From: a virus | Taxonomy: Duplodnaviria; Heunggongvirae; Uroviricota; Caudoviricetes | DNA: 64,000 nucleotides | Direction: 5' to 3' (one strand) | IMG/VR virus record: IMGVR_UViG_3300014208_000001 | Span: 1-64,000 of that record | In this document: piece by piece, positions 3,078-44,250 of the stretch | How the letters are laid out: every line of letters begins with the position of its first letter | Numbering within the stretch: position 1 is the first letter of the stretch | Made by a program: the position numbers and the translations under genes | Notes under the pieces: model-generated | Told to the model about the DNA's origin: nothing | Database searches by the model: none | Seen by the model: the letters and a program-made list of their open reading frames with translations, nothing else

Positions 3078-3265
3078 GTGTCATCCGAGGTTCGGCATGT
3101 GTTGATCTTATCTGTGACATTTTTGACAATTTGGTCTACTTTATTGATCGCATCAATGATGATGTCTGCTGCGTCTGCGTCTTCGCAGTCGATTTTCAGC
3201 AGATCTTTAACGAATCTTTCAGATAGGGTTTTTAATTTCGTCAAAGTGTGTTGCTTGGTAACCAT
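3059..3265 (-). CDS. hypothetical protein
   Basis: ORF from ATG 3265; N15 variant of promoter motif at 3306-3334. Confidence 0.5.
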   Translation of the reverse strand: MVTKQHTLTKLKTLSERFVKDLLKIDCEDADAADIIIDAINKVDQIVKNVTDKINTCRTSDDTCIIEK

Positions 3266-3495
3266 TTCCGGGTGCTTTCGAAACGAACTCGGTGACCTCA
3301 CCAATATATTGCAAGTCATCTATATGGCGGTAAAATAGGAGACCCCTTTCTTTATTTTTTGATACTACATATCCTTTGAGTAAGTCTCCAGCAGCATTTT
3401 TATAAATCACTGACCCATGTATCTGCTGCTGTTGGTTTGATGAGAATAAATGTACGACCATGCCGGTCTCGATGGCTTGCGATCGGTGATGGAAT

Positions 3496-3632
3496 TGGAG
3501 GTAGGGAGAATCGAACTCCCGTCCAGAGCGAGTTGCTAATCACCACAAAGTGTTTTGCAAGGGCAGTTTTCTTTGCTGGGCTACCACGCCCGAGGTAATT
3601 ACTAGGCTACTCTGTCGAATCCTGTTACCCCC
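3496..3632 (-). ncRNA. ssrA: miniature tmRNA-like RNA (137 nt)
   Basis: 5' GGGGGUA-ACAGGAUUCGAC; 3' GAC-GGGAG-UUCGAUU-CUCCC-UACCUCC-A; G3.U70 and A discriminator; helix 2 (CAGAG/CUCUG, UAAUUACC/GGUGAUUA). Confidence 0.85.
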
Positions 3633-3661
3633 GATATTTCTTAGTAAAGACATGAGAGTGG

Positions 3662-3973
3662 TTAGCCATGCAAAATCACCTCCTTAATCTCAACACCACT
3701 CTCCTTGAACGCCAAAATAGTCTTCTCGGCATCCTCAAGAGGAACCTCAACTCGCCTCAACACTTGGCACTCATTAATCACCAAACTCAACATCGACAAC
3801 GCATGAGCCGCCGGAGCACTCATCCTCTCAGGAGCTTTCAACCTCTCAAGAAACAACTCATGAGCAACTCGACGATCATCAATTTCTTTCTGAATTTCTT
3901 TCAAACGGCAACACTTCTTATACTTCGCACCACTGCCACAAGAGCACAAAGCATTACGTTGTTGACGCATCAA
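3662..3973 (-). CDS. SEC-C motif protein
   Basis: RNALCSCGSGAKYKKCC. Confidence 0.85.
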   Translation of the reverse strand: MMRQQRNALCSCGSGAKYKKCCRLKEIQKEIDDRRVAHELFLERLKAPERMSAPAAHALSMLSLVINECQVLRRVEVPLEDAEKTILAFKESGVEIKEVILHG

Positions 3974-39849: not shown

Positions 39850-40199
39850 ATTATATTTTTTAATTTTTGTGGGGTGTATTCTGATAATCGTATTAGTTTT
39901 TTAAATGTTAAATCAACTCTTATTACAATTTCTGAGTTTGTAATACAGATGTGTAATCGTGTTGATTTATTGTTGCCGGTTAGGACGATTGAATTAGTAT
40001 TATCGATTGCGTATCCGTTACAGACAGTGTATAGTTTAATGACGTCATTTAATATTACTTGATATACATCACTTAATATAATTAAGTGTTTTGTGTCTGG
40101 GGGTAGTAAGTATGGCGATAATGTATAAATGTCATTGTTTAATTCGTAAACAATTTGATTATTGTATAGTTTGTTGTCTTTGATTACGTAATAGATCAT
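39846..40199 (-). CDS. paralogue family member
   Basis: LSDVYQVILNDV...IRLSEY. Confidence 0.75.
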   Translation of the reverse strand: MIYYVIKDNKLYNNQIVYELNNDIYTLSPYLLPPDTKHLIILSDVYQVILNDVIKLYTVCNGYAIDNTNSIVLTGNNKSTRLHICITNSEIVIRVDLTFKKLIRLSEYTPQKLKNII

Positions 40200-44167: not shown

Positions 44168-44250
44168 GGGGAGGTGACAGAGTGGTCTAATGTACAGTTT
44201 TTACTGTGTACGGTTTACCGTATCGGGGGTTCGAATCCCTCCCTCTTCCG
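44168..44250 (+). tRNA. tRNA-Ser-like gene lacking an anticodon (pseudo-tRNA or mimic)
   Basis: Ser-type D arm, long variable arm UACGG-UUUA-CCGUA and T arm; anticodon arm reduced to CAGU-UUUU-ACUG. Confidence 0.75.

Follow-up and report, generated by a model that had tools for sequence, protein, structure and literature searches.

A stretch of 64,000 nt of phage DNA (referred to here as the window) carries, on its minus strand, a gene for a 137-nt miniature tmRNA; the gene is very probably functional and its RNA of tmRNA descent. Its tRNA-like domain is intact and contiguous, its helix 2 encloses a small three-way junction, and the same fold, with compensatory changes, recurs in diverged relatives from phage genomes and phage-like metagenome contigs. 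The window is the first 64 kb of IMG/VR virus record IMGVR_UViG_3300014208_000001, a genome of 355,825 bp with terminal repeats that is rated 100% complete, has 34% G+C and contains 8 tRNA genes.

The RNA is read from 3632 down to 3496, as originally predicted, and is the sole match to the Rfam tmRNA model RF00023 in the 355,825-bp genome. Infernal, one of the two programs with which the prediction was to be checked, scored it at 55.7 bits over 3493–3632 (-), above the RF00023 gathering score of 47 bits (E = 3.9e-19 in the 64-kb window). The alignment spans model positions 1–374, skipping the body of the model and joining both halves of the tRNA-like domain. The other program, ARAGORN, called neither a tmRNA nor a tag at this locus.

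All elements of the tRNA-like domain named in the prediction are present (Table 1). The acceptor stem comprises 7 bp (GGGGGUA/UACCUCC) with G3.U70, which is unchanged, together with the discriminator A, in 8 of 8 aligned family sequences, while the neighbouring acceptor pairs covary. The sequence GGAUUCGAC occupies nt 11–19, a GGAC linker is present, there is no anticodon arm, and the loop of the T arm fits GUUCGAnUC. The 3' end runs into AUU directly after A137, confirming that CCA is not encoded. This absence is the normal style of the genome, because CCA is encoded by none of the 8 phage tRNA genes either.

Table 1. Features of the miniature tmRNA and its flanking genes, in window coordinates; nt numbers count from G1 of the RNA.
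Feature	Position	Strand	Description
Miniature tmRNA gene	3496..3632	(-)	137 nt; G1 = 3632, discriminator A137 = 3496; RF00023 and 7 identical assemblies
Acceptor stem, 5' strand GGGGGUA (nt 1-7)	3626..3632	(-)	G3 of G3.U70; pairs 4-7 covary
D-loop analogue ACAGGAUUCGAC (nt 8-19)	3614..3625	(-)	no D stem, no anticodon arm
Helix 2a, 5' strand CAGAGU (nt 19-24)	3609..3614	(-)	pairs with nt 104-109
Conserved internal-loop motif AGCCUAG	3602..3608		directly 5' of the helix 2b 5' strand
Helix 2b, 5' strand UAAUUACC (nt 32-39)	3594..3601	(-)	8 of 8 pairs change on both sides
Hairpin A (nt 42-55)	3578..3591	(-)	GGGC/GCCC stem; loop GUGGUA invariant in the family
Candidate short frame (nt 52-93)	3540..3581	(-)	begins right after the GUGGUA loop; UGA after 13 codons
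Hairpin B (nt 57-88)	3545..3576	(-)	GCAAAG/CUUUGU stem; 20-nt loop with conserved AAA..UGC
Helix 2b, 3' strand GGUGAUUA (nt 89-96)	3537..3544	(-)	holds UGA nt 91-93
Conserved loop motif GCAAC	3530..3536		after the helix 2b 3' strand
Helix 2a, 3' strand GCUCUG (nt 104-109)	3524..3529	(-)	fold, covariation
T arm GGGAG/UUCGAUU/CUCCC (nt 113-129)	3504..3520	(-)	4 of 5 pairs covary
Acceptor stem, 3' strand UACCUCC (nt 130-136) and discriminator A137	3496..3503	(-)	fold, 8-sequence covariation
SEC-C-motif protein gene, 103 aa	3662..3973	(-)	upstream, co-oriented; stop codon 30 nt ahead of the RNA
80-aa ORF	3219..3461	(-)	downstream, co-oriented; start 35 nt past the RNA end

Both neighbouring genes are co-oriented with the RNA. 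Homologues of the SEC-C protein were found only within the same phage. A promoter and terminator scan detected no site at either end of the miniature tmRNA, and the sequencing runs listed as holding the locus include no RNA run. A 14-codon ORF, MANHSHVFTKKYRG, lies at 3625–3683 (-) behind a strong Shine-Dalgarno sequence, AAGGAGGUG, with 7-nt spacing and an AUG start; its UAA stop falls on nt 6–8 of the miniature tmRNA. The ORF is probably fortuitous because the strain variants lack it.

Several observations concern the genome at large. The tRNA and small-gene region that contains the miniature tmRNA (window positions 1–28000) has 41–47% G+C and positions 40000–64000 have about 30%, with a zone of extreme strand skew at 28–40 kb. 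At 44168–44249 (+), in the AT-rich half of the window, a tRNA was weakly called (34.7 bits) and typed as tRNA-Ser with an unusual anticodon, ACT; the other tRNA genes are on the opposite strand. With a length of 1455 aa, the terminase large-subunit ORF (genome 180466–184833 (-), equal to L019:466–4833) shows helicase- and endonuclease-like matches in the middle of the protein, which suggests inserted elements such as inteins or homing endonucleases. An ENA contig of 355,685 bp (L035) represents the identical phage with another start point and has the locus in mid-contig, at 170,169–176,477. Given this difference in start, the repeat at the termini of the IMG/VR record may reflect overlapping ends of an assembly that is circular or circularly permuted, and not a fixed genome end.

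The RNA is unchanged among strain variants of the phage. The identical phage (100%) is present in three other assemblies, from groundwater-type samples, and soil and other runs contain variants at 95–99% identity. Seven assemblies, the window and six others, agree in all 137 nt. In three variants (L047, L049 and L050) the flanks differ from the window by 1–8% and the 137 nt are unchanged, with divergence starting exactly at G1 and after A137. The same three variants carry a 444-nt insertion between the SEC-C gene and G1 (window 3632/3634), which brings in an extra ORF of 158 aa with no Pfam match (L047:1830–2306, L049:3802–4278, L050:593–1069), and L049 and L050 have a different sequence directly 3' of A137. 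About 2.5–5 substitutions would be expected per variant within 137 nt and none was seen, a result of modest significance as the variants are not independent. The miniature tmRNA behaves as an intact module, and the ends of the module are the predicted mature ends of the RNA.

Beyond these variants, four diverged relatives (L070, L059, L099 and L031) and two sister groups have the same fold. Scans of metagenomes yielded L031, which is 141 nt long plus an encoded CCA and lies after a peptide deformylase gene and before three tRNA genes, as well as L029, located in a tRNA array. Scans of viral contigs yielded L059, L070, L099 and the sister groups L064/L051/L077 and L078/L085, and a landfill run contained a homologue that covers all of the RNA, shows 10 differences and lies between dissimilar flanks. 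The L099 copy sits inside a co-oriented array of 32 tRNA genes, and the L031 and L029 copies adjoin tRNA genes; this setting would fit co-transcription and tRNA-type processing. Overall, the 135–137-nt architecture recurs in at least six diverged lineages.

Covariation among homologues had been proposed as a check of the predicted fold, and it bears the fold out. A covariance model was built from the window and L070 on the window's fold. It scored L070, L099, L059 and L031 at 75–149 bits and the L064 and L078 sister groups at 53–63 bits, with the members beyond the window and L070 found at 53–89 bits; RF00023 gave the relatives 50–70 bits. Unguided MAFFT/RNAalifold alignments placed hairpin B wrongly, and the alignment was therefore rebuilt with the covariance model. 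In the resulting eight-sequence alignment, pairing holds in 90.9% of cells and both sides change in 28 of 36 pairs, counts that are somewhat inflated by the fitting of the structural alignment to the covariance model. None of 500 shuffles was as good (0/500), and slid partners pair in only 39–50%. Covariation extends over acceptor pairs 4–7, all 8 pairs of helix 2b, hairpins A and B and the T arm, and the five closest family members give the same picture. The compensations in hairpins A and B are visible by eye in the unaligned sequence.

The original prediction had left room for three less favourable outcomes: relatives with a full-length tmRNA, a unique unconserved deletion, or one half of a two-piece tmRNA. 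Instead, in the records of five relatives (one is 91% complete) the miniature occurs alone, unaccompanied by a full-length tmRNA or by SmpB; the same form recurs in diverged relatives; and both halves of the tRNA-like domain are contiguous.

Several other searches came back empty within their scope. Pattern scans of viral contigs with GGATTCGAC-N75-105-GGACGNNNGTTCGANTC and GGATTCGAC-N10-40-GGCGTGGTAGCC gave no match, being too strict for relatives at ~90% identity, and no miniature turned up in 185,579 species genomes with the same strict pattern, whose matches were all either full-length bacterial tmRNAs or sequence other than tmRNA. Megablast and blastn against GenBank phages found no relative and only a 32-nt match in the T arm. 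The phosphoesterase relatives L004–L007 are without the miniature tmRNA, as is the only terminase relative, a 30%-complete fragment. No close relative of the L031 deformylase was found, and a search with the spurious ORF translated across the RNA, designed to catch mis-called genes on relatives' contigs, returned nothing. ARAGORN called none of the scanned relatives.

The scans also turned up tmRNA-like genes of other kinds. TLD-only genes of 59–89 nt are present in many IMG/VR contigs (L052, L054, L057, L067, L073, L075, L084, L089, L090, L053, L081, L055, L058 and L088), and a GC-rich TLD-only version of 67–70 nt is nearly unchanged in three JGI contigs (L025:1640–1709, L032:940–1009 and L033:221–290). 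Further miniature tmRNAs of 124–136 nt with perfect 7-bp acceptor stems belong to other sequence families (L062/L092, L060, L072 and L029:1947–2072); that of L029 can form an H-type pseudoknot of its own (GUAUG/CAUAC with GUGAU/AUCAC). A 202-kb phage (G003) has a 304-nt tmRNA at 74802–75105 (L008:1501–1804 (-)), which scores 90.8 bits, is uncalled by ARAGORN and lies ~3 kb away from a gene related to the phosphoesterase gene of the window.

Helix 2 of the miniature tmRNA consists of 6 bp and 8 bp with a conserved internal loop between them, and is shorter than the helix 2 of full-length tmRNAs. The insert that it encloses, predicted at ~50 nt, measures 49 nt and forms a three-way junction with hairpins A and B. 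The GGGC/GCCC pairing put forward as the first stem of a PK1-like pseudoknot is hairpin A, and it covaries in relatives: the stem reads AGGC/GCCU in L031, GACC/GGUC in L059, GCC/GGC in L070 and GGGC/GCCU in L099, so that 3 of 4 pairs change on both sides. Hairpin B, in which 5 of 6 pairs change on both sides and the UGC of the loop is invariant, has the stems GAAGGG/CCCUUC in L031, GCAGGG/CCCUGU in L070 and CGUAG/CUACG in L099. The second stem of the predicted pseudoknot, GGUA/UGCC, can form and is a candidate: none of its nucleotides varies, and 2 of 5 relatives lose one of the pairs. Loop–loop pairing of GGUA or GUG with UGC is likewise possible and involves invariant bases only, and some members have an alternative pseudoknot stem, in registers that differ.

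An H-type pseudoknot, in which a stem S1 (CGGGCGUGG/CUGCCCUUG) is combined with hairpin B, was considered as the consensus fold and dropped, because its outer stem is unconserved in L059 and L070 and conflicts with the covarying hairpin A. In shuffled sequences it was reached in 175 of 2000 cases for the window and in 0 of 2000 for L031.

The two covarying hairpins stand where PK1 would be expected, between helix 2 and a resume codon. The layout of the junction is PK1-like in that a stem-loop contains a strand complementary to what directly precedes it; the Rfam consensus and the G003 tmRNA of 304 nt have this PK1-type layout too. Past hairpin B the insert leads straight into the 3' strand of helix 2, so nothing occupies the site downstream of PK1 where the mRNA-like domain canonically lies. 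PK2–4 are absent as predicted, helix 2 enclosing only 49 nt.

We consider it probable that host enzymes process and alanylate this RNA, that host SmpB binds it and that it competes with the host tmRNA at stalled ribosomes, leaving rescue untagged or blocked. The sequences show the fold and how far it is conserved, the elements of alanine identity, and a phage with neither SmpB nor a full-length tmRNA; the biochemical steps that follow are our inference. The RNA would be transcribed along with the surrounding minus-strand genes, trimmed as phage tRNAs are, and completed with CCA by a host enzyme. Host AlaRS would alanylate it via G3.U70 and A73, host SmpB would bind it, and EF-Tu would carry it to ribosomes that have stalled on broken mRNAs, where it would compete with the full-length tmRNA of the host. 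Non-stop complexes would then be handled without the host proteolysis signal, being either blocked or released with only alanine or a short arbitrary tail. Neither SmpB nor a CCA-adding enzyme is encoded by the phage genome, which also lacks a second tmRNA; without a phage SmpB, any activity of the miniature tmRNA must use that of the host.

The original prediction had described an SmpB decoy or a tag-less rescue RNA. The conserved gene, its alanine-identity domain and the lack of a conserved tag agree with this description, but a simple SmpB sponge is the less fitting part of it, as helix 2 and the junction would be unnecessary for that role. Phages also carry TLD-only forms of 59–89 nt that would suffice as a sponge, and the retention of helix 2 and a conserved junction argues for a predicted action on the ribosome over mere SmpB titration.

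Whether the RNA may also serve as a template depends on its reading frames. As judged from its members' sequences, the family has no conserved degradation tag. The AAAACU-GCC-CUU-GCA frame, located in the hairpin B loop, does run to the 3' end without a stop, but the earlier statement that the RNA has no terminated tag frame does not extend to the other two frames, which stop at UGA nt 91 and UAG nt 95. The term tag-less likewise holds for a conserved tag, but the frame after the hairpin A loop closes in every relative.

The rival reading that survives best, although we think it unlikely, treats the RNA as a complete minimal trans-translation RNA. After the addition of alanine, translation would resume just after the GUGGUA loop, with hairpin B melted, and stop at UGA nt 91–93. 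It would resume at GCC, or at CAG if U50-A51 act as U85-A86 do in E. coli; the ribosome would be freed and the protein would receive the tail A(A)QQRKLPLQNTLW, which is not a degradation signal. The candidate frame reads GCC CAG CAA AGA AAA CUG CCC UUG CAA AAC ACU UUG UGG UGA. The post-GUGGUA frame is closed ahead of the tRNA-like domain in 7 of 7 lineages, after 13, 13, 1, 7, 1, 13 and 1 codons. However, a stop in any given frame has a ~60% chance per sequence, and the joint chance of closure, 0.04, or 0.12 allowing for three frames, is not significant. Six of 7 lineages begin the frame with an Ala or Gly codon, L031, L099 and L078 share GCY-UAA, L029 contains GCU-UAA, and L070 retains its UGA despite having lost the helix 2b pairing. 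Against this, the predicted peptides (A*, A*, GRTRKHA* and unrelated 13-mers) share nothing and are without the usual hydrophobic Ala-Ala end.

The position of the putative resume codon is equally ambivalent. The invariant UAG of the loop resembles the frame-setting element U85-A86-G87 of E. coli, but with GCC as the resume codon a G stands 4 nt ahead of it. Nearly all tmRNAs have A86, and A86G all but abolishes activity in E. coli (PMC2481249). The case for GCC nt 52–54 as a conserved resume codon is weakened because GCC covaries as part of the hairpin A stem, and the frame would cross two helices. Natural tmRNAs with two-residue Ala-Ala tags have been reported (PMC11915505), and the kept helix 2 and junction suggest a ribosomal role that a minimal template would also explain. 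Yet this helix 2 is far shorter than in full-length tmRNAs, ARAGORN reports no tag, and in the full-length tmRNA of G003 a related, non-identical string, GCGUGUAGGGG, opens the PK1 region and does not lie at the resume site. On balance we doubt that a short release-only frame is in use. The wider proposal that would follow is similarly tentative: the ~135-nt family would be the smallest natural tmRNA to carry out full trans-translation, with a resume site at the GUGGUA–G boundary and a template of 1–13 codons within the 49-nt junction, freeing ribosomes stalled on degraded host mRNAs and adding only Ala-Ala or an arbitrary short tail instead of the host proteolysis tag.

A different tRNA-like role, as a decoy for host tRNA-targeting defence nucleases or as a processing or punctuation signal in a polycistronic transcript, appears very unlikely. 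The tRNA-gene neighbours in relatives and the coincidence of the RNA boundaries with recombination breakpoints would suit such a role, but the invariant features are specific to tmRNA (G3.U70 with A73, the elements GGAUUCGAC and GGAC of the tRNA-like domain that binds SmpB, and the missing anticodon arm), and the Rfam match comes from the tmRNA model, not from the tRNA model.

The gene ssrA is an integration site of many phages, which carry its 3' end. That the RNA is a decaying remnant, either an internally deleted full-length phage tmRNA or an attachment-site fragment of a temperate phage, might be argued from this habit, from the many IMG/VR pattern matches without a matching 5' acceptor strand (which may be fragments or 3' ends of longer tmRNA genes) and from the 304-nt tmRNA of the distant 202-kb phage, but it is largely refuted and hardly credible, given that both acceptor strands are present and covary together, that the 135–137-nt form shows compensatory changes in every helix across its lineages, that the RNA is invariant where its flanks recombine exactly at its ends, and that the relatives lack a full-length copy.

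Reduced tmRNAs are also found in organelles. The mitochondrial tmRNAs of jakobids and oomycetes (Jacob 2004; Hafez 2013; RF02544) have reportedly lost the mRNA-like region, and a tag-less rescue role is said to have been proposed for them. Like the RNA described here they keep the tRNA-like domain and rely on an SmpB encoded elsewhere, in the nucleus in their case and not by the phage in ours. They differ in being organellar, in being usually circularly permuted two-piece molecules and in having no module of helix 2 and three-way junction; the best Rfam match of the phage RNA is RF00023.

Among phages, the closest precedent is the TLD-only tmRNA of mycobacteriophage DS6A (tmID 11587). In the passages of PMC4131195 and PMC11915505 that deal with it, a similar molecule is stated to have strongly inhibited tmRNA, perhaps via SmpB titration, and the inhibition is attributed to Mao et al. 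2009. As far as those passages describe the DS6A RNA, the miniature tmRNA resembles it in being phage-encoded and standard (non-permuted), with an alanine-type tRNA-like domain, no recognisable proteolysis tag and a need for host SmpB. By the same passages, the DS6A RNA contains little beyond the tRNA-like domain, whereas the present RNA has 137 nt, a two-part helix 2, a covarying three-way junction and a frame closed by UGA. The 2025 tmRNA database includes 79 phage sequences and 9 entries classed as 'standard, no CDS'; CDS-less cases include ~65-nt plastid forms and the DS6A RNA, with Nasuia and one other bacterial group only possibly tag-less, and the Ala-Ala-tag tmRNAs come mainly from Fermentibacterota (PMC11915505). 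The miniature tmRNA shares with the 'standard, no CDS' and Ala-Ala-tag tmRNAs, compared by their description only, a standard gene order and a tag frame that is missing or extremely short (PMC11915505), and translation from the candidate resume site would yield an Ala-Ala tag in L031, L099 and L078, which read GCY-UAA there.

Full-length phage tmRNAs are known from the mycobacteriophage Bxz1 group, Bacillus phage G and huge phages (PMC4131195, PMC7162821). Like them, the miniature occurs in a large phage together with tRNA genes. Unlike it, they retain PK1–4 and a tag frame, and some huge phages encode SmpB as well; neither SmpB nor a tag frame of that kind is present here. The RNA therefore falls between the established classes: it is far more than a tRNA-like domain and so lies outside the DS6A-type definition, and with no conserved tag and no PK2–4 it is not a full tmRNA. 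A CDS-less phage tmRNA having already been published for DS6A, the present RNA is best filed with the known CDS-less or miniature tmRNAs, among which its architecture with helix 2 and a conserved junction is new.

ARAGORN, the usual tool for annotating phage tmRNAs, misses the window RNA and the scanned relatives, and this class may thus be largely missing from phage annotation, including that of the huge-phage survey, in which tmRNAs were assigned by ARAGORN (PMC7162821). Should the short frame be in use, the family would push down the size limit of a working tmRNA; if not, the RNA would be related to the DS6A-type inhibitor, though larger and more elaborate. In either case these phages provide a natural experiment on the minimum tmRNA needed to engage SmpB and a stalled ribosome, and on whether phages block, replace or re-purpose the ribosome rescue of their hosts.
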